Part shown: in pieces, positions 9,960 to 47,826 of the stretch | Position numbering within the stretch: the first letter of the stretch is position 1 | Layout: every line of letters begins with the position of its first letter | NCBI GenBank assembly: GCA_041494885.1 | Contig: JBGQBO010000007.1 | Location: 68,359 to 132,358, forward strand | Direction: 5' to 3' | Source: Terriglobia bacterium | GTDB taxonomy: Bacteria; Acidobacteriota; Terriglobia; JAIQFV01 | DNA length: 64,000 nucleotides | Made by a program: the position numbers and the translations under genes | The notes under the pieces: generated by a model | Seen by the model: only the letters and a program-made list of their open reading frames with translations | The model's database searches: none | What the model was told of the DNA's origin: nothing

Positions 9960-10315
9960 TTCCGGTCATTCTTATCGATCCATGTCCCCTTGTCGCCTCC
10001 AAAAATTACCGGGATCCGAAGCAAATCTCAATTAACACCGGGCACTCATTTTCCTCTTGAGATTGTTCTCAAAAGGTACCCGAAGGCGAGTGGATCAGGT
10101 TCGAAAGAACCAATTTGAGTCTTTAGGTTGACATTTTCATGGCTAGTAAACTTGGAAAGATGATCTTCTGTAACCGTCTCATTCTGTTTCACAAATAAGA
10201 CCAAGCGTCATGATTCGTAAGTCACGATGAGGAATGATTCATCAAAAAACACCTTGCACCGTGTCGGTCGAAGTGATATAGCTTTGGCCGTTCTTGGTGG
10301 ATGGATGTGCTGACG

Positions 10316-10684
10316 ATGAAGCGAATAGCCTTTCGAATCCTGATAACAGTCTTTACCCTGGTACTGGGGACGCAGGTCTTGTGCGGTCAGACTCTATGCG
10401 ATTTATTGACCTCAATGCCCTGCTGCCCAAGTGAACAGGGTTCCACCATGCCAAAGGCGCCCTCTCCTGGTAATGATTGTTGCGTCATTGGCGCCCCTGC
10501 AGTCACCAATCATTTCACTGTAGATTCTCGTGTGAGTCCTGATTCCTCAAATCTTCAGACCTGCTCCATGCACTCGGAGGGTTTCAAGCTTCATTCGGTT
10601 GATCCTGCCGACACCGCGTTCTCATGGCATTCCCCGCAAACTCTCTACGATTGTCCTGAAAAACTCTCTGTCTTCCGCATCTGA
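10316..10684 (+). CDS. Small secreted Cys-rich protein (hypothetical, candidate periplasmic metal-binding or regulatory protein upstream of czcCBA).
   Basis: ORF with an N-terminal signal-peptide-like segment MKRIAFRILITVFTLVLG. Cys motifs are CGQTLC, PCCP, DCC. The start could be 10301 or 10316. Confidence 0.4.
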   Translation: MKRIAFRILITVFTLVLGTQVLCGQTLCDLLTSMPCCPSEQGSTMPKAPSPGNDCCVIGAPAVTNHFTVDSRVSPDSSNLQTCSMHSEGFKLHSVDPADTAFSWHSPQTLYDCPEKLSVFRI

Positions 10685-10841
10685 TCTAGTCCTCGCCCGT
10701 TTTGGCCTCAAAGCCGTTGTGTGTCTCCCATTCTGAAGCACCCTTCAGGCTTTGACCGTTCTCCATTCGCGCCTTCCCGATGGATGTCAGACCAACCTAT
10801 CGCGAAGAAACGAACATCAATTTTTACGACGAGGACTTAAC

Positions 10842-11273
10842 ATGAAACCAGATTCCTTTTTGAAGAAGGCGGCCCTGCTGATCCTGGCAACAGCAGTTTT
10901 AAGTCTCATTGCGAATACCCGGGCAGCAGCTCACGATCCAAAGCTCCACGCTGAGGCCAAGAAGGCAACTCAGGAGATCACCATCACCGGAGAGGTGATT
11001 GAACCTGGTTGTTTCCTTATCCACGGGGCCCGTGGCGCCGACCATAAATCTTGCGCCGAAATGTGTGCCAAGGGGGGTAGTACGCTGACCGTCCTCGATG
11101 AGAAAACGAACACCCTGTATATCCCCATTTCGCCGGAACATGGGAAAGACCCCAATGAAAAGCTGCTTCCTTACGCTGGCGAACGGGTGACCCTCAAGGG
11201 GCTTGCGATAAACAAATACGGTTATCACGCCATCGCGATCAAATCCGTGACCCGCGCCGAGGACAAGAAGTGA
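10842..11273 (+). CDS. Small secreted hypothetical protein with Cys/His cluster (GCFLIHGARGADHKSCAEMCAKGG).
   Basis: ATG at 10842 is preceded by RBS gagga. Signal peptide KKAALLILATAVLSLIANTRAAA. It lies immediately upstream of czcC. Confidence 0.45.
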   Translation: MKPDSFLKKAALLILATAVLSLIANTRAAAHDPKLHAEAKKATQEITITGEVIEPGCFLIHGARGADHKSCAEMCAKGGSTLTVLDEKTNTLYIPISPEHGKDPNEKLLPYAGERVTLKGLAINKYGYHAIAIKSVTRAEDKK

Positions 11274-11403
11274 GTGGCCTTCGGTCCGGGCATTTTGCGA
11301 GAAGCCTGGCAATGTCACCCCGTGGAGGCAGGCCACGACCCTGCGCTCCGCTGGATTCTCGCTGAAAAAGAAATTCCGAAATTCATGTACGGAGTTCAGA
11401 ACA

Positions 11404-12825
11404 ATGTCAAAACAAAACCATGGAATCATCCTCACCCTGGCCCTTTTAGCTTTGAGTTTGACCGCTCGGCCCCTGGTTGCCCAAACCTCCAGCCATGCGG
11501 AATCGCCCGTTTCGAAGAACCTTTTGACGCCGCGGCTCCCGGATCTTGCTCAATCGGCGGGGACAACCTCGAGCCTATCCCCTTCGAACAAAGACGCCCA
11601 ATACAATGTTCCCCCCGAGGAACTCTCGCCAAAGTCGGAGTCCGTCCTCCGTCTCCAGGATCTCATTGCGGAAGCATTGTCGAATAATCCGGAGATCCAG
11701 GCTGCGGAGCGAATGGTGGATTCGAAGCGGGCGGTCCCGCCGCAGCAGCGCTCACTTCCCGACCCCATGATTTCAGGCGGATGGATGGGCAATATTGTCC
11801 CGCCTTTTTCCATTCAGACGGGCGACCCCTCCAGCGCCCGGGTGCTGAGCCTTTCCCAGGAAATTCCTTTCCCGGGAAAGTTGGCGCTCCGGGGCCGTAT
11901 AGCGGACACAGAGGCTGATGCAGAACGGTGGAACTATGAGCGGACGAAATGGGCGGTCATTTCCAATCTCAAGCAGACCTATTACGATCTGGCTTTCATC
12001 GAGAAATCCATCCAGACGGTCGAAAAGGACAAAGACCTTCTCGAAAAACTGGCAAAGATCGCTGAGGTGCGCTATTCCGTAGGCAAAGGAATGCAGCAGG
12101 ACGTTATCCGGGCCCAGGTGGAAGTTTCCAAGCTCTTGGAGCGGTTGACGCTTCTGGAACAACGCAAAGGCGTCGCTGAAGCAATGCTCCGCAGCATTCT
12201 TTATCGTCCCCCTGACGCACCCCTGGGGGTTCCTGCCGAGGTCACAAAAGCAGAAGTTCCCTACTCGCTCACCGAACTCGAAGGCATCGCGGAGGCCAAT
12301 GCGCCTGATATGAAATCTCAGGAGCGGGAAATCGATAGGAACCAACTGGCCCTGAGCCTCGCAAGAAAAGACTACTACCCGGACTTCGGTGTCGGGTTCA
12401 CCTACTTCAACCGGCCTCAAATGCCGGAAATGTATGGGGTCAATTTCACTGCAAAAATCCCGCTCTACTTCTGGAAGAAGCAGCGATATGGCGTGGAGGA
12501 AGCGGCCTCTGGACTGGTCAGTTCAAAGAAGCGGACCGAAGCCGTCAAAGCCAACCTCTTTTTTAAGGTGAAGGACCAATACCTGGCCATGAAGGCTTCT
12601 GAACGACTGATGGACCTTTACTCGAAAGCCATTGTGCCCCAATCGACCCTGGCGCTCGACTCATCGCTCTCGGGTTACCAGGTAGGAAATATCGACTTTC
12701 TCAGCATGCTCAGCAATTTCCTGACCGTGCTTGATTACGAACTGAATTACTACGATTCCCTGACCAATTACCAGAAAGCGGTGGCCCGGCTCGAGGAAGT
12801 CGCAGGCACCGTTCTTTCAAAGTAG
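11404..12825 (+). CDS. czcC: TolC-family outer membrane efflux protein (CzcC/CusC-like), set 1.
   Basis: 473-aa ORF with a signal peptide and two OEP repeats. It is the first gene of a C-B-A operon whose stop/start codons overlap. Confidence 0.8.
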   Translation: MSKQNHGIILTLALLALSLTARPLVAQTSSHAESPVSKNLLTPRLPDLAQSAGTTSSLSPSNKDAQYNVPPEELSPKSESVLRLQDLIAEALSNNPEIQAAERMVDSKRAVPPQQRSLPDPMISGGWMGNIVPPFSIQTGDPSSARVLSLSQEIPFPGKLALRGRIADTEADAERWNYERTKWAVISNLKQTYYDLAFIEKSIQTVEKDKDLLEKLAKIAEVRYSVGKGMQQDVIRAQVEVSKLLERLTLLEQRKGVAEAMLRSILYRPPDAPLGVPAEVTKAEVPYSLTELEGIAEANAPDMKSQEREIDRNQLALSLARKDYYPDFGVGFTYFNRPQMPEMYGVNFTAKIPLYFWKKQRYGVEEAASGLVSSKKRTEAVKANLFFKVKDQYLAMKASERLMDLYSKAIVPQSTLALDSSLSGYQVGNIDFLSMLSNFLTVLDYELNYYDSLTNYQKAVARLEEVAGTVLSK

Positions 12826-12843
12826 CATAGCAAGGAGACGAGC

Positions 12844-14577
12844 ATGTTCTTAAACAAATCAAAGGGTCTTTTCATTTTATTCATTGTGGTCGCGCTGGCG
12901 GGCGCCTACTGGGTCCACGCCCGCGGTTATTTCGTTTTTCCCGTACGTCAAAGCTCGGATCCGCAGCAGCCGGTCTCCAAGGCGCCGGGTGAACGAAAAA
13001 TCCTCTACTGGGTCGATGCGATGAATCCGGCGCACAAATCCGACCGGCCTGGAAAGGCGCCCGACGGCATGGATCTCGTCCCGGTTTATGCTGAAGGTGA
13101 GAGGGCGACGGTGACGAGTAAACGAAAAATCCTCTACTGGGTGGATCCCATGCATCCCGCTTACAAATCCGACAAGCCCGGCACGGCCCCCGATTGCGGC
13201 ATGACTTTGGTCCCGGTGTATGCCGACGGCGGTGGAGAATCGGTCGGCGACAATCTACCCCCTGGCGCCGTTAAGATCTCAGCGACCAAACAACAGTTGA
13301 TCGGGGTACAGTTCGGTCAGGTTCAATATGGCCCGGTGGAGAGGACCATCCGTGCTGTCGGCCACATCGCCTTTGACGAGACAAAAATAGTCCGCGTTCA
13401 TACAAAAATTTCAGGCTGGATCGACAAGGTTTTCGTGGATTACACCGGACAATTGGTGAAAAAAGGCCAGCCGTTGTTCACGGTGTACTCCCCCGATCTC
13501 GTCTCCACTCAGGAAGAGTTCCTGATCGGTCTCAAAGCGAAACAATATTTGAGCGACAGCCAGTTCAAGGACGTCTCCATGGGGGCGCAGAGCCTTTACA
13601 ACGCATCCCGCCGACGGTTGCAGCTTTGGGACATCAGTGACAAACAAATTGAAGAACTCGAAAGAACCCAAAAACCGATGCGGGATATGACCCTCTACGC
13701 ACCTGATGACGGCTTCGTGACCAAGCGGAATGCCTTTCCTAAACAGCAAGTGAACCCCGACACGGAAGTTTACGAGCTCGCGGATCTTTCCACCATTTGG
13801 GTGCTCGCAGACGTTTATGAATACGAGCTTCCTGAAGTCAAACTCGGCCAGACGGCCAGAGTCAATCTCACCTACTTCCCGGGAAAGATCTTTGCCGGCA
13901 AAGTCTCTTACATTTATCCTGAAGTCGACAACACCACCCGCACCGCGAAAATCCGCATCGAGCTACCGAACGCGGACTTCCGGCTGAAACCCGACATGTA
14001 CGCCAGCGTGGAGTTGCAATTAAATTATGGCAAGCAGCTTTCCGTTCCTCAAGAAGCGGTGCTGGATTCAGGCACTGAGCAGACCGTTTTTGTCGCCCTG
14101 GGAAACGGCTATTTCGAGCCCCGCAAAGTCCAAGTGGGCGCCAAGGTCGACAATCGATACATTGTGCTCTCGGGACTGAAGCCGCAGGAAAATGTTGTCA
14201 CGTCCGGCAATTTCCTGATTGATTCGGAAAGCCAGTTGAAATCGGCCGTGGCAGCCATGGCGGGGATGCCGGGAATGAGCCAGGGAGAGCAAGGTGGTAA
14301 GCGAACGCAGAATCCGCAAGAACCGATGGCTCCGAAGCTGGGGTTGAGTCCCGCCCCACAGGAGCCAACCACTCCGACGGATCACTCCCAGCCTCCGATG
14401 AACAAACCCGCGAGTCCGCCGAAGAAATCGGCTCCCAAATCCTTATCCGGGATCGATCATTCCAAACACCCAATGGGAGGAGTGGATCATTCCGGGCACG
14501 AGCAGAAGTCATCAGGAAGCAGACACGCGGGACCTGCTGCCTCGACTAAGAAGAAACCGGCGGAGGATAAACAATGA
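12844..14577 (+). CDS. czcB: Heavy-metal efflux RND periplasmic adaptor (CzcB/CusB-like). It has two tandem degenerate N-terminal metal-binding-domain repeats and a His-rich C-terminal tail.
   Basis: 577-aa ORF with an HlyD/MFP core. The N-terminus has RKILYWVDAMNPAHKSDRPGKAPDGMDLVPVYA and RKILYWVDPMHPAYKSDKPGTAPDCGMTLVPVYA. The C-terminus has HSKHPMGGVDHSGHEQ. Confidence 0.85.
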   Translation: MFLNKSKGLFILFIVVALAGAYWVHARGYFVFPVRQSSDPQQPVSKAPGERKILYWVDAMNPAHKSDRPGKAPDGMDLVPVYAEGERATVTSKRKILYWVDPMHPAYKSDKPGTAPDCGMTLVPVYADGGGESVGDNLPPGAVKISATKQQLIGVQFGQVQYGPVERTIRAVGHIAFDETKIVRVHTKISGWIDKVFVDYTGQLVKKGQPLFTVYSPDLVSTQEEFLIGLKAKQYLSDSQFKDVSMGAQSLYNASRRRLQLWDISDKQIEELERTQKPMRDMTLYAPDDGFVTKRNAFPKQQVNPDTEVYELADLSTIWVLADVYEYELPEVKLGQTARVNLTYFPGKIFAGKVSYIYPEVDNTTRTAKIRIELPNADFRLKPDMYASVELQLNYGKQLSVPQEAVLDSGTEQTVFVALGNGYFEPRKVQVGAKVDNRYIVLSGLKPQENVVTSGNFLIDSESQLKSAVAAMAGMPGMSQGEQGGKRTQNPQEPMAPKLGLSPAPQEPTTPTDHSQPPMNKPASPPKKSAPKSLSGIDHSKHPMGGVDHSGHEQKSSGSRHAGPAASTKKKPAEDKQ

Positions 14578-17500
14578 TTAACAAGGTCATTGAAGCCTGC
14601 GCTCACAACAAATTCATCGTGTTCCTCCTCATCGGCATGGCCGTGCTGGCTGGTCTCTATTCGATGAAGAACATCACGCTCGATGCGATCCCGGATTTGT
14701 CGGACACACAAGTCATCATTTACTCACGCTGGGACCGAAGCCCGGACATCATGGAAGATCAGGTGACCTACCCGATCATTTCGGCGATGCTGGGGGTTCC
14801 TAAGGTCAAAGACATTCGTGGTTTTTCCGACTTCGGCTATTCCTACGTCTACATCATCTTCGAAGACGGCACCGACATCTACTGGGCTCGTTCGCGCACC
14901 CTGGAATACTTGAGCAACATCCTGCCCCGTCTGCCCCAGGGGGTGAACGTGGAATTAGCGCGCGATGAGACGGCGGTGGGATGGGTGTTTGAATATGCGC
15001 TGGTGGACAAGACTGGACAGAACAACCTGGCGCAGTTGCGGAGCTTCCAGGATTGGTATCTGCGCTATGCGCTCCAGGCAGTTCCCGGTGTTGCGGAAGT
15101 TGCTCCGATCGGCGGATTTGTCAAACAATACCAGGTCAACATCGATCCCAACGCGCTGTTGGCGTATGACATTCCCATAGACCGCGTCGTGCAGGCCGTG
15201 CGTCAAGGAAACAACGATGTCGGTGGCCGGCTGGTTGAGTTTTCCGGCCGTGAATACATGGTGCGCGGGCGTGGTTATATCAAGAAACTCGCAGACGTCG
15301 AAAACGTTGTCGTGGGGACAAGTAAACAAGGTGGAACTCCCATCCTGATCAAAAACCTGGGGACCGTGACTCTCGGCCCTGACATCCGGCGCGGCATCGC
15401 TGAACTGGATGGCGAGGGAGAGACCGTAGGCGCCGTGGTCATCATGCGCTATGGCGAAAATGCCTTGAAGGTGATCGAGAGGGTCCGGACCAAGCTTGAA
15501 GAGATGAAGGCGTCTCTGCCGCCGGGCGTCGAGATCGTGACCACCTATGATCGCGCGGAACTGATTCAACGCGCTATCGAGACCCTCAAAGGAACGCTGA
15601 TTGAAGAACTGACTATCGTCAGCATCGTTATTATGATCTTTCTCTGGCACATCCCCTCCGCCTTAGTCCCCATCGTCACGATTCCGATCACCATCATCAT
15701 CTCGTTTGTTCCGATGTACGCGATGGGACTGACCGCAAACATTATGAGTCTTGGGGGCATCGCGATCGCCATTGGCGCCATGGTCGATGCGGCCATTGTG
15801 GTCGTCGAGCAGACCCACAAGAAACTGGAGCACTGGGATACGGAAGGCCGCCATGGCAGCTACAAAGACGTCGTCATCGGCGCCGTGAAAGAGGTCGGTG
15901 GGCCGAGTTTCTTCGCCTTGCTGGTCATCGCTGTCGCCTTCATTCCCGTCTTCACGCTTCAAGGACAGGAAGGCCGGCTGTTCAAACCTCTCGCCTACAC
16001 GAAAAACTTTTCGATGGCCATTGCGGCTTTTCTTGCCATCACGCTTGACCCGGCGATCCGGTTACTGTTCACTCACATGGATCCTTACAAGTTTAAGCCC
16101 CGGTTCCTGGCCCGCATCGTCAATGCCGTGATGGTCGGCAAAATCCACAGCGAAGAGACGCACCCCATCAGCCGGCCGCTGATGAAACTCTATCATCCGG
16201 TCTGCGAATTTGTGCTGAGGTTTAAGTGGTTTGTGGTTGTGGCGGCGGTCCTCACGGTCGTCTTGACGATCCCGGTGTTCGAGAAACTCGGCTCAGAGTT
16301 CATGCCGCCGTTGAACGAAGGGGTGCTTCTCTACATGCCCACGACCTTGCCCGGCATGTCGGTCACTCAGAGTGCGCAATTGCTCCAGATCCAGGACAAG
16401 GTGCTCAAGAGCTTCCCCGAAGTGGAGCGCGTGTTTGGTAAGGCGGGACGTGCTGAGACCGCTACGGATCCTGCCCCTTTTTCAATGATGGAGACCGTCG
16501 TTGTGCTCAAGCCGGAATCCGAGTGGCCCAAGGTGCCGCAGTGGTATTCGTCCTGGGCGCCGAACTGGCTGCAAAATATCCTTCGGAAAGCATGGCCCGA
16601 CCATAAGCGGGTGGAAGATCTCATCTATGGACCCGGTGATTTGAATGAAGCCATGCAATTTCCCGGCGCCGTGAACGCGTGGACCATGCCCATTAAGGCC
16701 CGCGTGGACATGCTCACAACCGGGGTCCGCACACCCATCGGCATTAAGATCATGGGCGCCGATTTGGCGAAGGTGCAGGAGATCGGCGAGCACATTGAGA
16801 TAATTCTGCAAAAAGTGGGAGGCACGAAGAGCGTCTTCGCAGAGCGTACCGCGGGTGGTTACTTCCTGGATTTTGATCTCAAGCGGGAGCAACTTGCCCG
16901 TTACGGGATGACGATCGATCAGGCCAACGATGTCGTGATGTCGGCCATTGGGGGGGAAAACATAACGACGACGGTTGAAGGCCGCGAGCGCTATCCTGTC
17001 AACGTCCGATATATGCGTGACTATCGCAGCGACTTAAACCTCTTGGGACGTACCCTGGTCATGGCGCCTAACGGAACACAGATTCCTATCGCGCAGATCG
17101 CAGACATCAAAATGGTGACCGGTCCGGGAATGATTCGCGATGAAAACGGACGCTTGTCCGGCTATGTGTACGTCGATCTCGACACCACGAAGCGGGACAT
17201 CGGTGGTTACGTCGCGGATGCCAAGAAGGCTATCCGGTCCGAAGTACAACTTCCGCCCGGTTATCAATTGATCTGGAGCGGACAGTTCGAATACATGGAG
17301 CTTGCCAAGCAGCGCCTCTTTGTGGTGGTTCCCATCACGATCTTTGTGATTATCATGCTGCTCTACTTCAACACCCGTTCGATGACCAAGACCCTGATCA
17401 TCCTGGTGGCAGTCCCATTCTCCGCCGTTGGAGCGATCTGGTTCCTGTACTTCCTGGGATACAACATGAGCATCGCGGTATGGGTCGGACTGATTGCGTT

Positions 17501-17876
17501 GATGGGTGTGGACGCCGAGACGGGCATGTTCATGCTCCTGTACCTCGAGATCGCCTACCACGAAGCCCAAGCGAAGGGACTGATGAGGAACAAGGAAGAC
17601 TTGAAGGAGGCCATCCTGCACGGCGCGGTGAAGCGTCTCCGGCCCAAGGTGATGACGGTCGGGGTGATGTTCATGGGGCTCGTACCCATTATGTGGTCAA
17701 CCGGTAGTGGTGCTGATGTCATGAAACGCATCGCCGCGCCAATGATTGGAGGCATTTTCACCTCGTTTCTTCTGGAGCTGGCCGTCTATCCGGCCATCTA
17801 CGAGATCTGGAAGTGGTACTCCGAGGTGAGAAACAATTCCATCGCCGGCGCTGAACCCCCGGTGGTCACGAGTTAA
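14574..17876 (+). CDS. czcA: Heavy-metal efflux RND permease (HME family, CzcA/CusA-like), set 1.
   Basis: 1100-aa ORF with 12-TM AcrB/CzcA architecture. Its start overlaps the czcB stop. Confidence 0.9.
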   Translation: MINKVIEACAHNKFIVFLLIGMAVLAGLYSMKNITLDAIPDLSDTQVIIYSRWDRSPDIMEDQVTYPIISAMLGVPKVKDIRGFSDFGYSYVYIIFEDGTDIYWARSRTLEYLSNILPRLPQGVNVELARDETAVGWVFEYALVDKTGQNNLAQLRSFQDWYLRYALQAVPGVAEVAPIGGFVKQYQVNIDPNALLAYDIPIDRVVQAVRQGNNDVGGRLVEFSGREYMVRGRGYIKKLADVENVVVGTSKQGGTPILIKNLGTVTLGPDIRRGIAELDGEGETVGAVVIMRYGENALKVIERVRTKLEEMKASLPPGVEIVTTYDRAELIQRAIETLKGTLIEELTIVSIVIMIFLWHIPSALVPIVTIPITIIISFVPMYAMGLTANIMSLGGIAIAIGAMVDAAIVVVEQTHKKLEHWDTEGRHGSYKDVVIGAVKEVGGPSFFALLVIAVAFIPVFTLQGQEGRLFKPLAYTKNFSMAIAAFLAITLDPAIRLLFTHMDPYKFKPRFLARIVNAVMVGKIHSEETHPISRPLMKLYHPVCEFVLRFKWFVVVAAVLTVVLTIPVFEKLGSEFMPPLNEGVLLYMPTTLPGMSVTQSAQLLQIQDKVLKSFPEVERVFGKAGRAETATDPAPFSMMETVVVLKPESEWPKVPQWYSSWAPNWLQNILRKAWPDHKRVEDLIYGPGDLNEAMQFPGAVNAWTMPIKARVDMLTTGVRTPIGIKIMGADLAKVQEIGEHIEIILQKVGGTKSVFAERTAGGYFLDFDLKREQLARYGMTIDQANDVVMSAIGGENITTTVEGRERYPVNVRYMRDYRSDLNLLGRTLVMAPNGTQIPIAQIADIKMVTGPGMIRDENGRLSGYVYVDLDTTKRDIGGYVADAKKAIRSEVQLPPGYQLIWSGQFEYMELAKQRLFVVVPITIFVIIMLLYFNTRSMTKTLIILVAVPFSAVGAIWFLYFLGYNMSIAVWVGLIALMGVDAETGMFMLLYLEIAYHEAQAKGLMRNKEDLKEAILHGAVKRLRPKVMTVGVMFMGLVPIMWSTGSGADVMKRIAAPMIGGIFTSFLLELAVYPAIYEIWKWYSEVRNNSIAGAEPPVVTS

Positions 17877-17891
17877 GGAAGGATCGCTGTC

Positions 17892-19100
17892 TTGCCCTTT
17901 GTCCCCATTGCAGCCATCGCTGTTGGAACCATCGCCTTGCTGGTGAGCGGGCGCTCGGCTCTGAAGTTAGGCGTGAGTCAGGCGGCCGGGTTGAGCTTCG
18001 GCTTGTGTGCGATCGCCGTGGCTGTGGCGCTGATTCCGAATGAATGGCGTATGTGGCTGGGAGGCGACGCAACAGGCGATCACCTCCTGACATATGTCCG
18101 CGGAGTGGGATTAACCGGATTATTGTTTCTTGCGGGGTTGCGGCTCCATTCGGAGGAACCCCGCCGGGCAGGGCAAATCTGCTTCTTCGCGACGGGTATG
18201 AGCGCGTTGGGAGGAGTGGTGGCGATTCTGGTGTTGATGAAACTTGCGCGAGCAGAAGCCGGGCCGGCCGTGTTAATGACCGCAGCAATGCTCGGCTCAA
18301 GTGTGTGGATTGCTGGCGAGTTGTCATTCCACCCCGCGAACCCAGCAGCCAAGTCCATCGCATCCGCAAGAATCGCGTCCAGTTCGGTGATTTGTTTCTG
18401 GATCCTGGTTGTGCACTTTTTCTCGATTTTTCAAGAACTCGGTGCCAGACATGCGTCCCGATCCGCATTCCTAGTGGTCGGAAGCTATGAGCTGTTGAAA
18501 TGGGTGCTCTTCTTTGCTTCGGCTTATTGGATAGGGGCCCGGTTGCTCAGTCGCGCAGAAGTTCGGCCAAGGGCATGGTCTGCCTCCCCCCGCTTCCTGC
18601 TCTTTGCGGTTTTGGCCTTCGGTTTTGCTGTGTTTGCGCTTGGCCAGCTCGGAGCCTTCGCGTGGGCTTATCTGGCCGGTGCTCTCTTTAACCGAATCAA
18701 GACAGGAACAGAACTCAGCGAAAGCCGGCATCCCTTGAGCAATGCGCTCCTCGTTTGCTTTATCTTCCTTCCGATGTTCCTGCAGTCTCATGGGAGGAGA
18801 GTGACCGGTGTGGGGATACTTCTGGTCGTCGTGGGCCTTGTCCTACTGACTAAATTCGGTCTCATGAGATCGGTTGCACTATGGGGGGGCGATTCCCCAA
18901 GTGAGGCAAATGTCTTCGCTTCTGCAACCATGGCCTCCGGAGAGATGGCAATCATGTTTCTTGGATTTGGCATGACAAAATGGCTCATCGACGGCCCCAC
19001 TTACTTTGCCATACTCGCTTTTGCATTGCTATCGATCCTGCTCGGCCCCGTTCTTCTTCAATTCACAGGCCGGCAGAAAGATATTCTGGTTAGCTCATGA
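17892..19100 (+). CDS. Polytopic membrane protein, cation:proton antiporter-like (about 11-12 TM).
   Basis: 402-aa ORF with TTG start directly after czcA. It is almost entirely hydrophobic helices. It is not a CDF (CzcD) architecture. Confidence 0.45.
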   Translation: MPFVPIAAIAVGTIALLVSGRSALKLGVSQAAGLSFGLCAIAVAVALIPNEWRMWLGGDATGDHLLTYVRGVGLTGLLFLAGLRLHSEEPRRAGQICFFATGMSALGGVVAILVLMKLARAEAGPAVLMTAAMLGSSVWIAGELSFHPANPAAKSIASARIASSSVICFWILVVHFFSIFQELGARHASRSAFLVVGSYELLKWVLFFASAYWIGARLLSRAEVRPRAWSASPRFLLFAVLAFGFAVFALGQLGAFAWAYLAGALFNRIKTGTELSESRHPLSNALLVCFIFLPMFLQSHGRRVTGVGILLVVVGLVLLTKFGLMRSVALWGGDSPSEANVFASATMASGEMAIMFLGFGMTKWLIDGPTYFAILAFALLSILLGPVLLQFTGRQKDILVSS

Positions 19101-19304
19101 ATCCTGTGGAAACGGCGGAACAACTGGAAAGCAAACAATGAAAAAAGAGAGAGTGTTAACCCTTTCATAATCTGAGGTAGGCTGAGTTCGCGCCTTCAAG
19201 CAAATTGATTCTGGCTTATCACATGATGTAGCCTGATCTGAATCAGACCAGTTTGTATTGAACGATAATACAGCAGCATCTGCAGGACAGTTGGAGGAAA
19301 AGCC

Positions 19305-19814
19305 ATGTCCCTAAAGAGAGTGATTTCAGTCCTGGTCTTAGTTCTGATTGTTGTGGCAGCATTGTCGTTGTATGTCATGGAGAAACGGAGGCTTTCCGCC
19401 GCCATCTGTCGCGCCTGCGGCCGGGAAATTCACAGCGAATGGGCCTTCATGCTCGGGCTCAAGAACGGAAAACAGGAAAGGTTGTGCTGCGCCAAGTGTG
19501 GAATCCTTGAACAATTGCAGATGCAGCCGCAGGTCGCCTCGGCAATAGCAACCGATTATGCCACTGGAAGATCTGTTCAGGCTGAAAAGGCCGTTTACTT
19601 GTGGAACTCCGACCTTGAGCATTGTGCCATGCCCCAAAAGAGGGAATGGGCGGATCCACGACCCATGGACCTTACCTTCGACCGCTGCTTTCCGAGTTTG
19701 GTTGCATTTGAGAGCCGTGATGAGGCCGCAAGGTTTAAGGCCGACCATGGCGGGACGCTTGTTGATTACAGTGAAAGCATTCGACTGGCGAAATCGCTGC
19801 CAGCGAATCCCTGA
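19305..19814 (+). CDS. Membrane-anchored TRASH-domain (CxxC-x21-CxxxC) protein, a putative metal-trafficking protein.
   Basis: 169-aa ORF with an N-terminal TM helix, then CRAC...(21 aa)...CCAKC matching the TRASH/YHS-like zinc-ribbon spacing. The C-terminal tail is ...LVAFESRDEAARFKADHGGTLVDYSE. Confidence 0.5.
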   Translation: MSLKRVISVLVLVLIVVAALSLYVMEKRRLSAAICRACGREIHSEWAFMLGLKNGKQERLCCAKCGILEQLQMQPQVASAIATDYATGRSVQAEKAVYLWNSDLEHCAMPQKREWADPRPMDLTFDRCFPSLVAFESRDEAARFKADHGGTLVDYSESIRLAKSLPANP

Positions 19815-19832
19815 GGAAAAGGAGAAGGAAAG

Positions 19833-20621
19833 ATGTTCTTAAAGCTCATGAAAGAGAACCGGTCCAGTCCGCTGTGCGTTTGCGGCCTGCCACAGGTACT
19901 GGGGTTGCTGACTTTTTTCTTGCTGGCAGCGGATTCTGTTTCGTTCGGCGAAGAGTTCACGCTCAGGGCAAAACACGATCATCTGAAAGGAAGCTGCAGC
20001 GGAGAACTCACCGTCAGCGATAACGGAATTCGCTATCAAACGACCCATCTCCAGGATCAACGCCAATGGGCCTTCGCAGACATTCAGGAGGTACAGATTA
20101 TCAGCGAAAAGAAGCTGAACGTGATTAGTTACGAGGATTCACGAAAACGCCTGGGGGGCGATAAGATATTCAAATTCGAATTGCAGGGAGAAACTCTCCC
20201 CCCCACTCTGATCGCTTTGGTCGAGTCGAAGTTTTCAAAACCCATTTCCAATCGCATGGCTGCCCAGAATCTCAAGGGTCAATTCGAGATTCCTGTGAAG
20301 CATTTGCATCGCGTCGGTGGGTGTCAGGGCAAACTCATCATCACGGAAATTGGCATCTCTTTTGTCAGCGAGAAACCGAGGGAATCCCGGCAGTGGCGCT
20401 ACAGCGATCTTCAGACCGTTGCCTCCACAGAGCGATACGAATTACGGCTGGGAACTTATGAGCACGGACCGCTGCAATATGGCGACACCAAGGAATTTCG
20501 ATTCCAATTGAAAGAGCCATTGAGCGAAGTGGCCTATCGATCCCTGTGGGCTCGAATCAATCAGCTTCCCCCATGGAGACCCGAGGGGAGCGGCAAGTTT
20601 GAAGGAAACAACGAACAGTGA
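19833..20621 (+). CDS. Secreted hypothetical protein made of two tandem homologous domains of about 100 aa each.
   Basis: 262-aa ORF with a signal peptide. Internal repeat: LRAKHDHLKGSCSGELTVSDNGIRYQT...QWAFADIQEV versus IPVKHLHRVGGCQGKLIITEIGISFVSEKPRESRQWRYSDLQTV. Confidence 0.5.
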   Translation: MFLKLMKENRSSPLCVCGLPQVLGLLTFFLLAADSVSFGEEFTLRAKHDHLKGSCSGELTVSDNGIRYQTTHLQDQRQWAFADIQEVQIISEKKLNVISYEDSRKRLGGDKIFKFELQGETLPPTLIALVESKFSKPISNRMAAQNLKGQFEIPVKHLHRVGGCQGKLIITEIGISFVSEKPRESRQWRYSDLQTVASTERYELRLGTYEHGPLQYGDTKEFRFQLKEPLSEVAYRSLWARINQLPPWRPEGSGKFEGNNEQ

Positions 20622-20704
20622 AACAGCGTGAGTGACCAAGGGTCAGTGCTCAGTTGTCCACCCATTGCGGATCACATCAGTGGTTGAGAAGGGCCAGAGA
20701 AACA

Positions 20705-21814
20705 ATGACCTTAATTAAAAAAGCCCAATCCGGAAAAGTCAGGCGCCACGGCGCGGGGTGCAACGTCCTGGGTCTTCTTTTGGAAGCCACAGTGATCTTG
20801 TTGGCCTTTTCTTCATTCCTGCTCGCACAATCGCCAAACAGAGACTCGAATCTTGGACGAATGACCCCGCTGCTTTCCGAAGTCGAAGCAGGAATTAACC
20901 GTGCGGCTCTTGCAGCCCAGGCTCTTCAAAATGCCGTACCGCTGATTGAAGCAGCGCGGTCACAGCTGTCCCGAGGAAAACGGAAGGAGGCTCTAGCCAC
21001 CTTCCAGAAGGCCCAGTCCATGATTCAGGATTCCCCGCAATTCGCCTTGGACGCCGTATTGCTCCGGTCGTTTTCCGCTGATCTCAACCGGATCATCAGC
21101 GCCATCCCCTCCCATCGAGCGGCACCGGATGAGCCCCCCGATGATTCTTTGGTCGTGGACGAATTACAGCGCATGATCCAGCAATACATCGCTTATTACC
21201 AAGGAAAAGGCCGAGCTCAAATGGTCGCATCCTGGCAACGAATGAAGAATTACCAGCCCACTGTGGAATCAGTCCTGCATGAAAAAAATCTTCCCACAGA
21301 ATTGATGTACCTTGGCATTGTCGAGAGCGGGTTCAACCGGTTCGCACGATCAAAGAAGCAGGCGCGAGGGATTTGGCAGTTTGTTCCCGCAACGGCCAGG
21401 CGTTATGGGCTGGAACAAAGCGGAGGCTATGACGAGCGCACGGACCCTCTCAAATCGACGGTAGCAGCCGCCGAGTACCTGGAAGACCTCTACGCCTCTT
21501 TTGGGGACTGGTATCTTGCGTTGGCGGCTTACAACGCCGGAGAAGGTCGTATTCAGTCCATCATTTCCCGCACCGGCATCCGCGACTTTTGGCAAATGAG
21601 CCGGTTGAAGCTGTTACCGCAGGAAACTATCAATTACGTTCCTGCCGTCCTGGCGACTGTCGCCATTGCCCGCGATCCGGAGAAATTCGGGTTCGTGGGG
21701 TCTTCTCCCCTATTAAGCTTAGGAACCAGCATGAAAAAGCACGCCCCTAATTTCATTTTTGCCAAGGCCTCCTTCACACAATCGGAGGCACCGGAGGACG
21801 ATGACATACAGTGA
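20705..21814 (+). CDS. Lytic transglycosylase (SLT domain) with an N-terminal signal/anchor region.
   Basis: SLT catalytic region [34 protein letters not shown] and AYNAGEGR. The ORF could start at 20654 or 20705. Confidence 0.8.
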
Positions 21815-21908
21815 AGCGGCGCTGGACTCCCTACCCCACATCATCCGTGATCAACAAATCCGTGAGTCTCATTTGACCGATCAAAATCACTAGAATGCAG
21901 AGTATTAT

Positions 21909-24599
21909 ATGAGGGAAACATCGAATTCAAGCGGAAGAGGACCAGTGGCCATTGATGTGATTTGCCATATGACCGTGGACGAGCAGCACGCGGCCGGACA
22001 GTCGATCTACAACGGTAAGAATTACTATTTCTGTTCGCTCGGATGCAAACAGCGATTTGATGCTTCTCCTGAAAATTATGTAGTTGCCTCGATCGGAGCC
22101 GGGCCGTTACTCGTTGGGATTGATACAAGCGGGATTCCTGCACCCTCCTCTACGACTGGAGAATTCGTCACGGATCCCATTTGTGGAATGAACGTAAATC
22201 CCAGCACCGCAGCCGGATCATATGTTTACGAGGGCCAGACCTACTACTTTTGCAGTTCCCTCTGCTTGGAGAAATTTCGTTCGGAACCTCTTAAGTATTT
22301 AAAAGGATCGGCCGAAGGTCGTGTTACAGGTAAGCCTTCACTGTTGACTCCGGCTGTGCCCGGCGCTACGGGACGCGAATACGTCTGTCCCATGGATCCG
22401 GAAATCAAGAAGGAAGGTCCGGGTGCCTGTCCAAAGTGCGGAATGGCGTTGGAGCCGAGGGTGGTCTCCGCATCGACAATAAGGACGGAGTATGTGTGCC
22501 CCATGCATCCGGAGGTCGTCCGGACGGAACCCGGCGCGTGCCCCATTTGTGGTATGGCCCTGGAGCGCCGAACGGTGTCTGCTGAAGACGAGGTCAATCC
22601 GGAACTTGTGGAGATGAAGCGGAGGTTCTGGGTCGGCCTTTTGCTCACAGCCCCGACTCTTCTTCTGGCGATGTCGGACATGATCCCGGGGCAACCGTTG
22701 AAACATGTCATGGGGCCGCGTCCGATGACCTGGGCGCAACTCGTGTTGGCCACACCCGTCGTTTTGTGGGGCGGGTGGCCATTCTTCCAGCGCGGATGGG
22801 CTTCGCTTGTGAATCGCAGCCTGAACATGTTCACTTTAATCGCAATAGGTACCGGTACTGCTTATGCCTACAGTATAGTGGCGACTCTCGCGCCCGAGAT
22901 CTTTCCGAATTCATTCAGGGATCACCATGGCGAGGTGGCCGTTTACTTTGAAGCGGCGGCGGCTATTACGACCCTGGTCTTGTTGGGACAGGTGCTTGAA
23001 CTGAAGGCGCGCAGTAAAACCAGTAGTGCAATCAAGGCGCTCCTTGGCCTCGCACCGAAGACCGCGCGCCTCTTTGCAGAGGATGGCTCCGAGCACGATT
23101 TGCCCTTGGATCAAGTCAAACCGGGCGACCGGTTACGGGTCCGGCCAGGTGAAAGGGTCCCCGTGGATGGAATTGTTCTTGAAGGCCTTAGTTCCATCGA
23201 CGAATCCATGGTGACCGGGGAGCCCATTCCCGTGGAAAAAACCCCGGGGAACCGTGTCACGGGCGGAACGGTCAATGGGACAGGGAGCCTGATCATGCGA
23301 GCAGAACGGGTGGGCAGCGAAACGCTACTGGCACAGATCGTGCGCATGGTGGGTGAAGCACAGAGAAGCCGTGCACCCATCCAGCGCCTGGCGGATGTCG
23401 TCTCTTCGTACTTTGTCCCCGCCGTCGTGTTGATCGCGGTGGCCACGTTTATCATCTGGAGCCGTGTCGGTCCTGAACCGCGAATGGCCTACGCCCTGGT
23501 CAACGCCGTGGCGGTGTTGATCATCGCCTGTCCCTGCGCTCTTGGACTGGCCACCCCGATGTCGATTATGGTGGGAACAGGTCGCGGGGCCACCGCAGGA
23601 GTGCTGATCAAAAACGCGGAAGCCCTGGAGGTCATGGAGAAGGTCAACACCCTTGTGGTGGACAAGACGGGCACCCTCACTGAAGGCAAGCCGGTACTGA
23701 CCTCCGTGGTGGCTCTGCCGCCTTGGAACGAGTCGGAATTGCTTCAAATAGCAGCAAGCCTGGAACGCGAGAGCGAACATCCCCTGGCGGCAGCCATTGT
23801 GGCCGGCACTCAACAGCGGCGGCTGGGTCTCTACAACGCTACAGAATTCAAGTCCCTCACGGGAAAAGGAGTTAGAGGAAAAGTCAATGATCACGAGGTC
23901 GTTCTCGGCAGTCGCCAGTTTCTCGAAGAATTGAACATCCCTGCGGGCTCCCTGGCCGAGCGAGCCGAGGCGCTCCGACGAGAGGGCGAAACGCTCCTCT
24001 TCGCTGCTGTGGATGGCCGCTCCGCCGGTCTGCTCGGAGTCGTGGACCCCATCAAGTCGTCGACGCTCGAGGCCATAAGAACGCTCCACCGCGAAGGCAT
24101 TCAAATTCTCATGGTCACAGGAGACAGTCGTACGACTGCAGAAGCCATTGCGCGCAAGTTAGGGATCGATGAAGTGGTAGCGGAGGTTCTACCGCAACAG
24201 AAAGGAGAGGTCATCAAGCGCCTCCAAAAGGAAGGCCGCGTGGTGGCCATGGCCGGCGATGGAATCAACGATGCGCCGGCGCTCGCACAAGCTCACGTGG
24301 GCATCGCCATGGGCAACGGGACGGATGTGGCGATTGAAAGCGCGGGCATCACCCTGGTCAAAGGCGACCTGCGTGGAATCGTTCGGGCCCGGAAGTTGAG
24401 TCGGGCAACGATGCGTAATATCCGGCAAAACCTGTTGTTTGCCTTTCTCTATAACTCCATCGGTGTGCCTGTCGCGGCGGGCGTGCTTTATCCGTTCTTT
24501 GGATTGTTACTTAGTCCGATGCTTGCCAGCGCCGCAATGACCTTCAGTTCTGTCTCGGTTATCACAAACGCTTTGCGGCTGCGCAAAGTACAGTTGTAG
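21909..24599 (+). CDS. copA: Heavy-metal (Cu+-type) translocating P1B-type ATPase with an unusual N-terminus of 2 TRASH/YHS-like modules plus 2 CusB-type HMBD modules.
   Basis: 896-aa [11 protein letters not shown]...[12 protein letters not shown] and ICGMNVNP...[12 protein letters not shown] are the TRASH/YHS-like modules. [27 protein letters not shown] and [26 protein letters not shown] are the HMBD modules. Other motifs are TGE, CPC ([11 protein letters not shown]), [15 protein letters not shown]. Confidence 0.9.
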
Positions 24600-24766
24600 C
24601 AAAAGACGATCAGTCCCTACCATGTCTGCAGCCTTCAAGAATGCGGGTTCAAGAGGTTCGCCCCTGCTCAAAGCACGCCTTTTTCTTTAGAAAGGAAGGC
24701 GAGTTGGAACTCCTTATGGATTTCCACTCGCCCAAATGACCTGCTCTATCCTTCAATCCCAACCCG

Positions 24767-25216
24767 TCATGGTTTTTCGACGATATCGCTCTTCATGGGA
24801 CCCAGCAGGCCCAGCAGTTCATTTTTTTCCTTCTCGGGCACCTTGAACTTGTCGAGCGCCCCTACCAAATCCTCGACGAGGGCGCCGAAGTCAGCGGTGG
24901 ACACCCCCATCCCGGCATGAGCTGTTTTCATATCTTTTCCCGTGTATTTGCAGGGCCCGCCAGCTGCTGAGCAAATTTGATCGACTAGCTCCATCTTGAG
25001 ATGGGCGATGTCCGTGTGTCCAAAAAAAGAGTTGATGCGGTTGTCCGCAGCCACCCGCCCCACAAACTCGTCCACCACTGCAGTGATTGCCGGTTTACCG
25101 CCGAGTCGGTCGTACAAAGATTTCCCCTTCATCGCTTCTTTGGGTGCGGCCGACAGGATTGTCACCATCCCCATTACCAACATCGTCATTACCCATTTCT
25201 TTAAAACCCCTTGCAT
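24767..25216 (-). CDS. glbN: Truncated hemoglobin (group I trHb/GlbN family) with a predicted N-terminal signal peptide.
   Basis: ATG at 25216 is preceded by a perfect [42 protein letters not shown] is the trHb signature. The N-terminus is [25 protein letters not shown]. Confidence 0.8.
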
Positions 25217-25777
25217 AATCAATCTCCTTGTTTTTAGATGTGTGTTGCCGTCTGACCTCAAAACTCCCCACGCCATTCGACACTTTTCCTCAGCATCGAA
25301 GGGCCTCCTTTTGCCCATGCCGTCGCCGTCTCCGACTTGAGACGCCTTTCTTTGGCAGCGGATTTCGGTCTTCACACACTATTACGAAGGACACTCGCTT
25401 TCGGATTTGATCTCTGCAAGAAAATTAGAGGTGCACGAGGGCACGCGGGGATTACAGGGATCAAATTGAAGGAGATTTTGATTTTCTGAGAATCAATCTT
25501 CGACCTTCTGCCCTCTGGACAAGGATTCTGTGGGATCCAAGCGCAAACGAGCGTGCACTGTGTGGCAAGCTGCTGGGGCGAAATTCGATTGTGTGCCTGT
25601 TGCGCTTTTCCGTGGCCAGTTGTTAGAACAATGTTCCTGGCGATAAAACTTACGGCGCACAATTGCATTCCCGCGGAATCTGCATTAGAATGATATTTAT
25701 TTCATCACACCTCAAATGCCAACAAGGCGAAGGAAGATTTCTCCGAATCCTTGTGTGCTGACCCAAAGGGAGTTGCT

Positions 25778-26866
25778 ATGGAAGACCAGAGTGTCCAAGT
25801 CAGTGAATCCACGGTGCTCAATGCCCTAAAATCGATCAAAGATCCTGACCTACACCGCGACATTGTCAGCCTTGGCTTTGTTCAGGAAGTTAAGATTTGC
25901 GGTGGACAGGTGGCGTTCAAGATTGTGCTCACGACGCCTGCCTGCCCGGTTCGCGACAAGATGCGGGATGAGGCGAAGGCCGTGGTTTCAGCCCTCCCGG
26001 GAGTGACGCAGGTGAATGTTACAATGGATGCCAAGGTGGTGGCCACTCAAGGCATTCCCGAAAAACAAGCGATTCCCGGCATCCGCAATATTCTTGTAGT
26101 GGGCAGCGGCAAAGGTGGCGTTGGAAAATCCACAGTCGCCGCCAATCTTGCCATCTCGCTGGCTCAGATGGGGGCCCGCGTGGGTTTGATGGATGGGGAT
26201 ATCTATGGCCCCAACATTCCCTTGATGCTGGGAATCACCGAACAGCCCATCGTTCAGAACGAGCGCGTCGTCCCCGTCATCAAGCACGGCCTGAAAGTCA
26301 TTTCCATGGGGTTCTTCAACCGGGGCGATACGCCGGTCATCTGGCGCGGACCCATGCTCCACAGCGCAATTCAGCAGTTTTTGAAACAGGTGAGTTGGGG
26401 AGAACTCGATTATCTCATGGTGGATTTGCCGCCGGGAACCGGCGACGTTCAATTGACGATGGTGCAGTCGGTGCCCTTGACAGGCGCAGTCGTCGTCTCC
26501 ACTCCGCAGGACGTGGCGCTGCAGGACGCCCGTAAAGCAATTATGATGTTCAAGCAGATGAAGGTGGACATCCTGGGAGTGGTGGAGAATATGAGCTACT
26601 TCCTCTGTCCACAGTGCCACCACCGGAGTGACATTTTTTCGCACGGAGGAGCCAGGAAGGCGAGCGAGAAATTTGAAGTGCCGTTCCTGGGTGAAATCCC
26701 TCTGGACGTCTCCATTCGCGAGGGCGGGGATACCGGATTGCCCATCACCATCTCCCAACCCGACTCCGACCTTTCAAAAGTGTTTACCCGGGTCGCCGAG
26801 CAGCTCGCCGCCCAGATCAGCATATCGAATTTCAAACAACCCGGGGTCCCCGCCGTGGTTATGTGA
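25778..26866 (+). CDS. apbC: Mrp/NBP35-family Fe-S cluster carrier ATPase (ApbC) with an N-terminal DUF59/MIP18 domain.
   Basis: Walker A VVGSGKGGVGKST and C-terminal CPQCHH motif. RBS aaagggag lies before the ATG at 25778. Confidence 0.85.
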   Translation: MEDQSVQVSESTVLNALKSIKDPDLHRDIVSLGFVQEVKICGGQVAFKIVLTTPACPVRDKMRDEAKAVVSALPGVTQVNVTMDAKVVATQGIPEKQAIPGIRNILVVGSGKGGVGKSTVAANLAISLAQMGARVGLMDGDIYGPNIPLMLGITEQPIVQNERVVPVIKHGLKVISMGFFNRGDTPVIWRGPMLHSAIQQFLKQVSWGELDYLMVDLPPGTGDVQLTMVQSVPLTGAVVVSTPQDVALQDARKAIMMFKQMKVDILGVVENMSYFLCPQCHHRSDIFSHGGARKASEKFEVPFLGEIPLDVSIREGGDTGLPITISQPDSDLSKVFTRVAEQLAAQISISNFKQPGVPAVVM

Positions 26867-40653: not shown

Positions 40654-41507
40654 AAGTTCTGCGTTTCAGTGCCGGTTGAGTATCTGCTCCATCAATTGTC
40701 TCTGCTAACGCGATTTCTTCCCATTAAGGTCCGGGACTCCCCTTCCATACCCCGGGAGTAAGGTTCAAAACCTCCACCCTTCGATCCTGGACTCGAGCCC
40801 GTCACCCGAGCGGGCATTATAACAAAATCCCCCTCTGAGACCGACCCGACCTCATGGGCGAGTTGACCCCAGGCAACCCAAGCGCCCCCTGATGAATCAA
40901 CAGGCCTGTCGTGATAAGAGGTTGATATTTAGAAATTCATTCTGTTAGAATGTTGTCCTCTGATGAGACAGCCCTTGACCCTGACAAAGAAGCCCTTGCG
41001 CCGCGGTATGCGGCGCTTGACCGCCTTTCTAGCGCTTTGCGCTTTTTCCTTCTTTTCTTTTTCGCTGGGCCTGGAGCACACCTGCCTGACTCAGAGAGGA
41101 CCCGACTCCCCTGCACTTGCCTCAAGGATTACAAATGTGTCCGGGGGGGTTGAGGCTCCTGTTTGCTCCCGGCTCTTGGTTTCCAGCCAGCGCCGGGCGA
41201 CCACGAACCCGGGCGATGGAGTTTGCCTGGCCTGCGCCTGGTCGCAGTCACTGATCAAGCAAATTTCGATTGTACAACTCATAAGCCCTGCCCTGGTTAA
41301 TTCACTGTTGCTGACGCCTACCCAACGGATCATTCCATTTCATGATCTCTGCTGCGCAACTCTAAAACGAGGCCCTCCCAGCTTGTCCTCCGTCTAATTT
41401 CCTTTACTTCAATTGCTCAACAGTCGCCGCGTTCTACCTGCAAGATGTGTATTTCCCTTGCGGCGAGACTTTTGCCAACGCATTATCATTGTGAGGAGTG
41501 CCAATCC

Positions 41508-44017: not shown

Positions 44018-44101
44018 TGGGTGGGGCGCGGCCCGCTTGGTCATCCACCGCGGCCGGGACCGGGAGGCTTCCCTGGGCCTCGCGTTCCAGAGAAAACATC
44101 T

Positions 44102-47728: not shown

Positions 47729-47826
47729 CTCTACCCAACGAAGCCTCGATTGAACGTCGCCAAGCGCCATCATTCGAGAGCCGTATTCACATATCATCTT
47801 AAAAACATTTGGATGGGAGATTTCAT

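Follow-up and report, generated by a model that had tools for sequence, protein, structure and literature searches.

The textbook example of metal detoxification in the periplasm is the Cus-type pump. Copper is believed to reach this pump by way of its accessory chaperone CusF, a periplasmic Cu(I)/Ag(I) metallochaperone that folds as one OB domain and has a His/Met/Met/Trp site, and Cu(I)/Ag(I) is bound in CusA by the methionines M573, M623 and M672. The Acidobacteria rank with the most abundant bacteria of soils and appear to lack CusF, and the locus described here shows accessory proteins of an acidobacterial Cus pump in the place of CusF. It lies in a stretch of 64,000 nucleotides (nt) from a Terriglobia bacterium (the window, that is, the whole stretch of DNA that was analysed), which shows 96-100% protein identity to metagenome contigs of Terriglobia (Acidobacteriota). 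The genes under study occupy positions 19305-21814 and encode a membrane-anchored protein of 169 amino acids (aa) with a predicted NosL fold, a secreted protein of 262 aa made of two tandem PH-like domains (tPH) and a lytic transglycosylase with an SLT domain.

With moderate confidence we read positions 11404-24599 as a copper/silver export island typical of Acidobacteriota, in which a CusC-CusB-CusA and CopA core is accompanied by three periplasm-facing accessory proteins, with the SLT protein as a cell wall cutter. The genomic association of the accessory genes with the Cus pump is strong, and for the accessory block itself we infer the mechanism that is given below. In this reading the locus presents an unnamed secreted family that is almost invariably tied to cusA, and a NosL-type chaperone that would have been redeployed from the maturation of enzymes to efflux.

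Conservation of the accessory block beside Cus pumps

Scanning one genome per species by pattern and tblastn yielded 65 loci, all from Acidobacteriota (Terriglobia, Bryobacterales, Blastocatellia and the cultured Paludibaculum fermentans); 64 of them hold tPH relatives of 28-38% identity and one (L013) holds a close relative that is 90% identical, and a metagenome scan with alignment A10 gave two loci. Among the 51 loci having at least 3.3 kb of upstream sequence, 50 showed a cusA-like gene upstream of tPH on the same strand, and in 46 of those the end of cusA was found at -150 to +400 nt from the tPH start, the two genes often overlapping. Within 8 kb of tPH, NosL-like genes were present in 30 of the 65 loci and a CPA-like gene in three. 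In these loci tPH is primarily a partner of the Cus pump, encoded as the fourth gene of its operon, and would form a fourth component of it.

Analysis of the close relatives (50-96% tPH identity) revealed that they carry the same set of genes, coding for an outer membrane factor (OMF), CusB, CusA, the CPA-like protein, the NosL-like protein, tPH, the SLT protein and CopA, in a permuted order in which CopA lies before or after the NosL-like/tPH pair. The two genes of that pair were adjacent in every close-relative locus examined, with a spacing of about 16-18 nt where it was read. In two further lineages (L011/L012 and L079) a NosL-like gene, with no tPH beside it, was found between cusA and the gene for the OMF. 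Gene fusions were also found: tPH is fused to Cupredoxin_1 (P0041, P0045, P0063 and L014), to YtkA/FixH (P0122), to DUF5818 (P0056, L035 and L053) and to SLT (P0068, P0075, P0084, P0117 and L072), and the SLT and CPA-like proteins are fused in frame as one polypeptide of 740-755 aa in L002-L004 and L010.

These data bear on the alternative that the three genes are unrelated neighbours lying by chance between two metal transporters. Synteny kept over 28-96% protein identity, a gene order that is permuted with the linkage retained and multiple independent fusions refute it, and we give it next to no credence. Nor are the proteins scattered housekeeping genes in relatives, the finding that the preliminary description had named as fatal to its proposal, because their linkage to copper-export genes is conserved in every relative examined.

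The island consists of eight consecutive genes on the plus strand, from the OMF through CopA:

11404-12825, plus strand: CusC-like OMF (Pfam OEP, E=7.4e-52), the first gene of the order OEP, membrane fusion protein (MFP), resistance-nodulation-division (RND) pump and tPH that is found in most related loci
12844-14577, plus strand: CusB-like MFP (Pfam HlyD_D23, E=2.3e-80; HMBD, E=8.2e-19, two stretches; NCBIfam CusB subfamily, E=1e-69)
14574-17876, plus strand: CusA-type heavy-metal RND pump (TIGR00914, 1075 bits; best PDB match E. coli CusA, E=1e-302)
17892-19100, plus strand: polytopic membrane protein of 402 aa, distantly CPA (Na+/H+ exchanger)-like (Pfam Na_H_Exchanger, E=4.7e-5, below threshold)
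19305-19814, plus strand: membrane-anchored protein of 169 aa with a predicted NosL fold (transmembrane anchor at about aa 5-25; Cys4 motif at nt 19407-19499)
19833-20621, plus strand: tPH, secreted tandem PH-like protein of 262 aa (signal peptide at about aa 1-39, nt 19833-19949)
19956-20228 and 20283-20558, plus strand: tPH domain 1 (aa 42-132) and domain 2 (aa 151-242)
20654-21814, plus strand: membrane-anchored MltD-like lytic transglycosylase of 386 aa (SLT domain at aa 211-314, nt 21284-21595)
21909-24599, plus strand: CopA, P1B-type Cu(I)-exporting ATPase (NCBIfam CopA, E=2.2e-206; TIGR01511 above cutoff)

The intergenic gaps within 11404-24599 are 15-94 nt, the exceptions being a 4-nt overlap of cusB and cusA and a 204-nt gap ahead of 19305. 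A consensus promoter/terminator scan of 10000-25500 gave counts at or below the shuffle expectation and did not indicate operon boundaries. The three open reading frames (ORFs) share one strand, flanked by the metal RND pump and the P-type ATPase, exactly where the preliminary description had placed them; what it had left out is that the 402-aa CPA-like protein also sits between the pump and the block, and in close relatives this protein belongs to the same module. The CPA-like protein seems dispensable for the module, because in L078 (78-86% identity) only a 57-aa remnant of it survives (L078:2324-2479), between cusA and the NosL-like gene.

The upstream pump had been labelled czcA1. Alignments indicated instead that it is of CusA type, since its match to the PDB CusA sequence far exceeds that to the Zn pump ZneA (E=1.7e-138) and the Met triad is kept, M573/M623/M672 of E. 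coli CusA aligning with M588/M638/M713 of the window CusA. A Czc (Zn/Co/Cd) identity was rejected on these grounds, and the Met triad together with the closest similarity to CusA places the pump among CusCBA systems. The triad was present in 66 of 66 CusA sequences in which all three positions were readable (65 distinct loci of L001-L077 and the contig of the window itself).

The ATPase carries the two TRASH/YHS modules ascribed to it, in the form of two N-terminal YHS stretches (Pfam, E=1.3e-29), and in addition two N-terminal HMBD stretches (Pfam, E=1.4e-21). Its score of 620.8 bits against TIGR01511 lies above the Cu-ATPase subfamily cutoff of 397 bits, and its translation holds the CPC, YN and MxxSS motifs ([15 protein letters not shown] and MTFSSVS), so that both the subfamily model and the transmembrane motifs identify it as a P1B-1 Cu(I) ATPase. 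The HMBD modules of the two proteins differ in composition: both N-terminal modules of the periplasmic CusB (about aa 60-130) are almost free of Cys (WVDAMNPAH…, WVDPMHPAY…) and both modules of the cytoplasmic CopA N-terminus hold three Cys each (YVCPMDPE…CPKCGM), as if the same domain had been adapted to the compartment in which it works.

The window also contains a second OMF-MFP-RND operon at 41445-47185 (OEP, HlyD_D23 and ACR_tran) without any accessory genes, followed by a CarboxypepD_reg-domain protein at 47809-50418; in the window the accessory block accompanies the Met-triad Cus pump only.

Structure and conservation of the tandem PH-like protein

Comparison of the two halves of tPH by BLASTP showed 31% identity over 78 aa (E=3e-15), with the pairs C55/C164 and W79/W188, and bore out the first impression of two tandem homologous domains with a conserved Cys and Trp. 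The hydrophobic N-terminus ends in a small-x-small pattern and looks like a cleavable Sec signal peptide, whose position is conserved and whose sequence is variable in all homologues. Each domain shows the seven-stranded bent antiparallel sheet with a C-terminal helix cap that characterises the PH-like fold, and tPH is a secreted soluble periplasmic protein of two PH-like domains. The statement that it has no recognisable family holds for the sequence libraries and does not hold for the fold. The Pfam search gave sub-threshold matches to POB3_N (18.6 bits) and PH_SPT16 (15.8 bits) only, which do not admit tPH to a curated PH/bPH family, and neither NCBIfam nor, up to E<=10, the PDB sequences gave any hit.

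An exhaustive profile search with a limit of E<=1e-3 returned 660 tPH clusters (50% identity), of which 357 had E<=1e-10, mostly of proteins of 220-260 aa with signal peptides. This overturned the view that the family is very rare, which came from a word-indexed homology search that had found 20 tPH relatives and 3-16 NosL-like relatives. Cluster members of ten distant or fused tPH proteins bore no informative names, the single named one being a 'hypothetical protein'; as this is what annotation pipelines currently call its members, the family merits a name in them.

Within the window clade the sequence K-H157-L-H159-R-x-x-G-C164-x-G of domain 2 is invariant, and in domain 1 H48 and H50 are kept almost without exception and C55 in most members. 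The first beta-hairpins of the two domains are formed by strands 42-50/53-61 and 151-158/163-170, and on this model the triads H48/H50/C55 and H157/H159/C164 should each lie on one face of the hairpin. We infer that these His-x-His...Cys clusters are candidate Cu(I)/Ag(I) sites in the window clade.

Several observations weigh against such a role and against the favoured reading of the island. That the triads cluster follows from the register of the beta-hairpin alone. In a set of 150 distant representatives of tPH, a complete His-His-Cys triad was found in domain 1 of 56, in domain 2 of 62 and in both domains of 29, and 61 (about 41%) have no complete triad in either domain. The universally conserved residues of the family (G57/G166, L59/L168, W79/W188, R186, Y100, F115/F224 and K227) are no obvious metal ligands, and other members often have Arg or Lys in place of the triad residues, so that the hairpin could instead, by analogy with classical PH domains, bind anions. 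SLT genes were found within 8 kb of tPH in 18 of the 65 distant loci and full-length CopA in five.

The chief competing explanation takes up these points and holds that tPH is not a metal carrier but a structural or targeting adaptor that would couple the Cus pump to peptidoglycan remodelling, binding the wall, the membrane or the pump and recruiting or regulating the SLT protein, much as the LysM domains of MltD do or as transglycosylases are targeted to secretion systems. It accords with the direct fusions of tPH to SLT, with the fusion of the SLT protein in turn to the CPA-like membrane protein, with a window SLT protein that is MltD-like and devoid of LysM, with the 41% of distant members in which the triads are missing and their positions often basic, and with the typical use of PH-like folds as ligand- or protein-binding modules. 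Against it, in 47 of the 65 tPH loci an SLT gene is missing within 8 kb, whereas tPH comes after cusA in almost all; the other fusion partners of tPH (cupredoxin, YtkA/FixH and the Cys/His-rich DUF5818) are of copper type; and the triads are invariant in the window clade, strictly so in domain 2. We consider an adaptor function unlikely, and prefer the reading of tPH as a periplasmic metal carrier of the Cus pump.

A role for tPH as a periplasmic metal sensor or regulator, for example one that modulates a neighbouring two-component histidine kinase or gates the pump, is more doubtful again and in our estimate improbable. In about 26 distant loci a gene for a histidine kinase (DUF4118, HisKA and HATPase_c) lies divergently upstream of the cus-tPH operon (for example L062:780-1874 and L054:537-1631, both on the minus strand), and each tPH has two similar sites, both points in its favour. 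Neither the window nor its close relatives have a kinase gene next to these genes, however, and a tPH gene that is co-oriented with cusA and often overlaps it is typical of a stoichiometric operon partner.

Other genes were observed around tPH in the related loci. A small secreted Cys/His-rich DUF5818-like gene, absent from the window, follows tPH in 37 of the 65 loci (for example L067:8679-8996, L062:8627-8947 and L059:8681-9007); its product of about 106 aa has a weak DUF5818 match, the motifs TMCGxxH and CVRECV and at times a GHSGHSH tail, and looks like another uncharacterised periplasmic metal-binding protein. In Paludibaculum fermentans (L059) the order is cusCBA, tPH and DUF5818, with a NosL-like gene present as well. 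Loci of the Blastocatellia type contain an extra Cys-containing module of about 150-200 aa (…VWPE…GRR.Q.GF.L.LCG…; L070:6695-7321) without a Pfam match, which precedes tPH or is fused upstream of a signal/transmembrane segment (N-termini of L070:7341-8654 and of P0068). A gene for a 130-aa 23S_rRNA_IVP (four-helix-bundle) protein is inserted between cusB and cusA in L001 (1507-1899) and L005 (1769-2161) and is absent from the window.

The NosL-fold protein, the transglycosylase and the surroundings

The 169-aa protein was initially taken for a membrane-anchored TRASH-domain protein. The anchor and the TRASH spacing of its cysteines were both recovered, and the whole soluble part is, on the structural model, a NosL fold. 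The AlphaFold (AF2) model (pLDDT 83, pTM 0.71) showed an N-terminal hydrophobic helix at aa 3-30, and the modelled soluble part has the two beta-beta-alpha-beta halves of a NosL/MerB-like fold. The motif C35-x2-C38-x22-C61-x3-C65 fits the TRASH consensus, which Ettema et al. reportedly gave in 2003 as C-X2-C-X19-22-C-X3-C. No Pfam TRASH-type model was matched by the protein, which gave weak L24e profile hits only (E about 0.09). The Pfam NosL model (PF05573) scored 21.0 bits, below the gathering cutoff of 24 bits and over residues 130-157 only, and a profile of the protein matched the PDB NosL sequences with E=0.18-1. The TRASH call is compatible with the NosL fold because the NosL/MerB fold is itself thought to derive from duplicated TRASH-type treble clefs, L24e and YHS belonging to the same TRASH group (PMC4999995).

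In the NosL of S. denitrificans (SdNosL), structural Zn is held by C59, C62, C88 and D92, and Cu(I) by C62, M64 and M145 (PMC8457098). Motif alignment, as distinct from structural alignment, indicated that C35/C38/C61/C65 of the window protein correspond to C59/C62/C88/D92, with Cys replacing Asp, and by analogy the Cys4 TRASH motif most likely holds structural Zn. Alignment of 44 homologues of 28-100% identity revealed that C35, C38, R40, C61, C62, C65, C107, D126, R127, C128, P130 and F135 are invariant. Because the invariant residues include seven cysteines and the Cu ligands are altered, the protein is, as judged from its sequence, a member of a distinct seven-cysteine NosL-like subfamily, which probably binds Zn together with Cu(I) through thiolates. 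The strictly conserved Cu(I) ligands of NosL weigh against copper binding of the known kind: only the equivalent of Cys62 (C38) is invariant, the position of Met64 is an invariant Arg (R40), and the equivalent of Met145 (candidate M121) is unconserved in distant homologues.

Both flanks of the anchor of the window protein are positively charged (KR...EKRR), and the anchor looks uncleaved and has no lipobox. Among the homologues, lipoprotein signals were found in L036 (…LWAASC) and, after an RR motif, in L045, L059 and L062 (…LGGC), and others carry signal anchors with neutral or acidic C-flanks. Because distant homologues carry such signals, export of the protein, itself not a lipoprotein, is likely and the NosL-like domain is predicted to be periplasmic. 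A cytoplasmic domain, as the many cysteines and the positive C-flank of the anchor might have indicated, was rejected on account of the lipoprotein signals and classical signal anchors of the homologues, and the periplasmic SdNosL likewise has a Cys-rich Zn/Cu site (PMC8457098).

There is a further explanation, in which the NosL-like protein and tPH would serve copper supply, capturing the Cu(I) exported by CopA and inserting it into periplasmic cuproenzymes. NosL is the maturation chaperone of the cuproenzyme N2O reductase, NosL homologues occur outside nos clusters (PMC8457098), and tPH is fused to cupredoxin and FixH/YtkA-type domains, all of which would suit such a function. On the other hand, the scanned ORFs of the window and the genes called for the close-relative loci included no nos genes (nosZ/nosDFY) and no genes for other cuproenzymes, the neighbours of the NosL-like genes in all loci are Cus/CopA genes, the constant partner is the Met-triad CusA export pump, and the canonical Cu ligands of NosL are unconserved. 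We hold copper supply to be quite unlikely, and favour a NosL-like protein that serves export.

The third product is a lytic transglycosylase, as had been proposed, with a Pfam SLT match of E=1.3e-29 (PF01464, 102.6 bits against a cutoff of 21.3), the catalytic Glu-Ser motif (VESGF) and the motif AYNAGEG. Gene callers on identical contigs start the gene at the ATG at 20705, which is the probable start and gives a protein of 369 aa. The NCBIfam MltD model (NF008050) matched with E=2.4e-38 over its positions 74-252 of 457, its 131.6 bits standing against a cutoff of 508, and no LysM hit was obtained with Pfam or NCBIfam, so the protein does not qualify as an MltD equivalog. It consists of a signal anchor, a helical N-terminal region of about 150 aa and the SLT domain, and resembles the catalytic part of MltD. 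The recurrent SLT fusions suggest a cell-wall-related role, which the preliminary description had not considered, and raise the question of how envelope-spanning efflux pumps pass the peptidoglycan.

The island lies in an ordinary chromosomal context with no sign of mobile elements and a flat GC content of 0.52-0.58. The OMF gene is preceded by two small ORFs (10301-10684 and 10752-11273) without a family match, and farther upstream are a pyruvate:ferredoxin oxidoreductase fragment (64-2265), the hydrogenase maturation factor HypD (4282-5400) and a photolyase (7299-8699). Directly after copA, at 24767-25375 on the minus strand, is a gene for a truncated-haemoglobin-type globin with a hydrophobic N-terminal extension (Bac_globin, E=2.4e-16), followed at 25751-26866 on the plus strand by one for an Mrp/ApbC-type Fe-S carrier ATPase (FeS_assembly_P plus ParA). 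Because an Mrp gene also follows copA in L010, the synteny reaches past the metal genes.

Proposed metal route and comparison with known systems

The block was originally suggested to form a periplasmic metal hand-off route between the efflux pump and the ATPase. Its linkage to copper export and the periplasm-facing nature of all three products agree with this suggestion, and from the context a periplasmic copper hand-off is plausible; tPH, however, is primarily a partner of CusCBA, and CopA is rarely within 8 kb. The analysis established folds, signals for export, conserved residues, shared gene order and fusions; how metal would be bound, which way it would be passed on and why the cell wall would be cut may be pictured as follows. 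CopA would expel Cu(I) into the periplasm, where the membrane-tethered NosL-type protein would capture it at the membrane surface, C62, C107 and C128 carrying the Cu(I). The soluble tPH, in a role comparable to that of CusF, would buffer the metal or pass it from the anchored chaperone or the CopA exit to the HMBD modules of CusB or the Met triad of CusA, and CusCBA would then expel it from the cell. The transglycosylase, as a dedicated enzyme coupled physically to this machinery, would probably open the peptidoglycan locally so that the envelope-spanning pump can pass through the cell wall.

A bolder version of this proposal, which we put forward tentatively and would not expect to hold in full, is a Cus pump with three parts that have not been described for RND systems: a tandem PH-like metallochaperone replacing CusF, a seven-cysteine NosL-type chaperone linking the CopA exit to the pump, and a dedicated, coupled transglycosylase threading the pump through the wall. 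If tPH binds Cu(I)/Ag(I), it would represent a new structural solution for periplasmic metal trafficking and, to our knowledge, the first metal-related role for a bacterial PH-like domain.

Of the described proteins, the NosL proteins of known structure (PDB 7og7 and 2hq3) differ from the window protein in several respects: it has a transmembrane anchor for the lipobox, a full Cys4 motif with three more invariant cysteines and an invariant Arg at the position of Met64, its Pfam score is sub-threshold, and it is encoded in a Cus/CopA efflux cluster, not a nos cluster. With the TRASH metallochaperones and sensors (archaeal CopM/CopT) and the YHS domains of P1B ATPases it shares the spacing CX2CX22CX3C and the linkage to a Cu ATPase bearing YHS/TRASH modules. 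CopM/CopT and the YHS modules are, however, cytoplasmic single zinc ribbons, whereas the motif of the window protein is predicted to be embedded in a larger, exported NosL fold.

The SLT protein resembles VirB1, EtgA, the FlgJ-type enzymes and MltD in belonging to SLT family 1, in its ES and AYNAG motifs and in being encoded within, or fused to, components of a trans-envelope apparatus. It differs from MltD in having no LysM domains, and is a predicted enzyme. We know of no RND efflux pump that has a dedicated transglycosylase, and the searchable literature gave nothing relevant on transglycosylases for RND pumps, on DUF5818, on PH domains in periplasmic copper handling or on NosL with CusA in Acidobacteria.

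CopL/YdhK, a Gram-positive copper-binding lipoprotein whose two tandem DUF1541 domains each have a conserved metal site and whose gene accompanies that of a Cu ATPase, may be compared with tPH. With the sites of tPH as candidate ones, both would be extracytoplasmic copper-resistance accessories built of a tandem small beta-rich domain. Their folds and sequence families are unrelated, and CopL is lipid-anchored whereas tPH is soluble.

The nearest functional counterpart of tPH would be CusF of the E. coli cusCFBA operon. Like CusF, tPH is secreted, has a conserved Trp and is encoded inside a CusCBA operon beside a Met-triad CusA, and it is likewise presumed to feed the pump. It appears to occupy the operon niche of CusF, of which no homologue was found in the window or in loci L001-L077 (tblastn with a CusF query, E>0.7 everywhere, a weak negative), nor was there a Pfam CusF_Ec hit. 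The analogy is one of operon position alone, since tPH has neither the OB fold nor the ligands of CusF (PF11604) and consists of two PH-like domains with candidate His/His/Cys sites, with no relationship in sequence or fold. The Cus/CopA island is of a known kind, and what appears to be new, as far as the sequences indicate, is its accessory set: a NosL fold outside nos with different ligands, the unnamed tPH family and a pump-associated transglycosylase.

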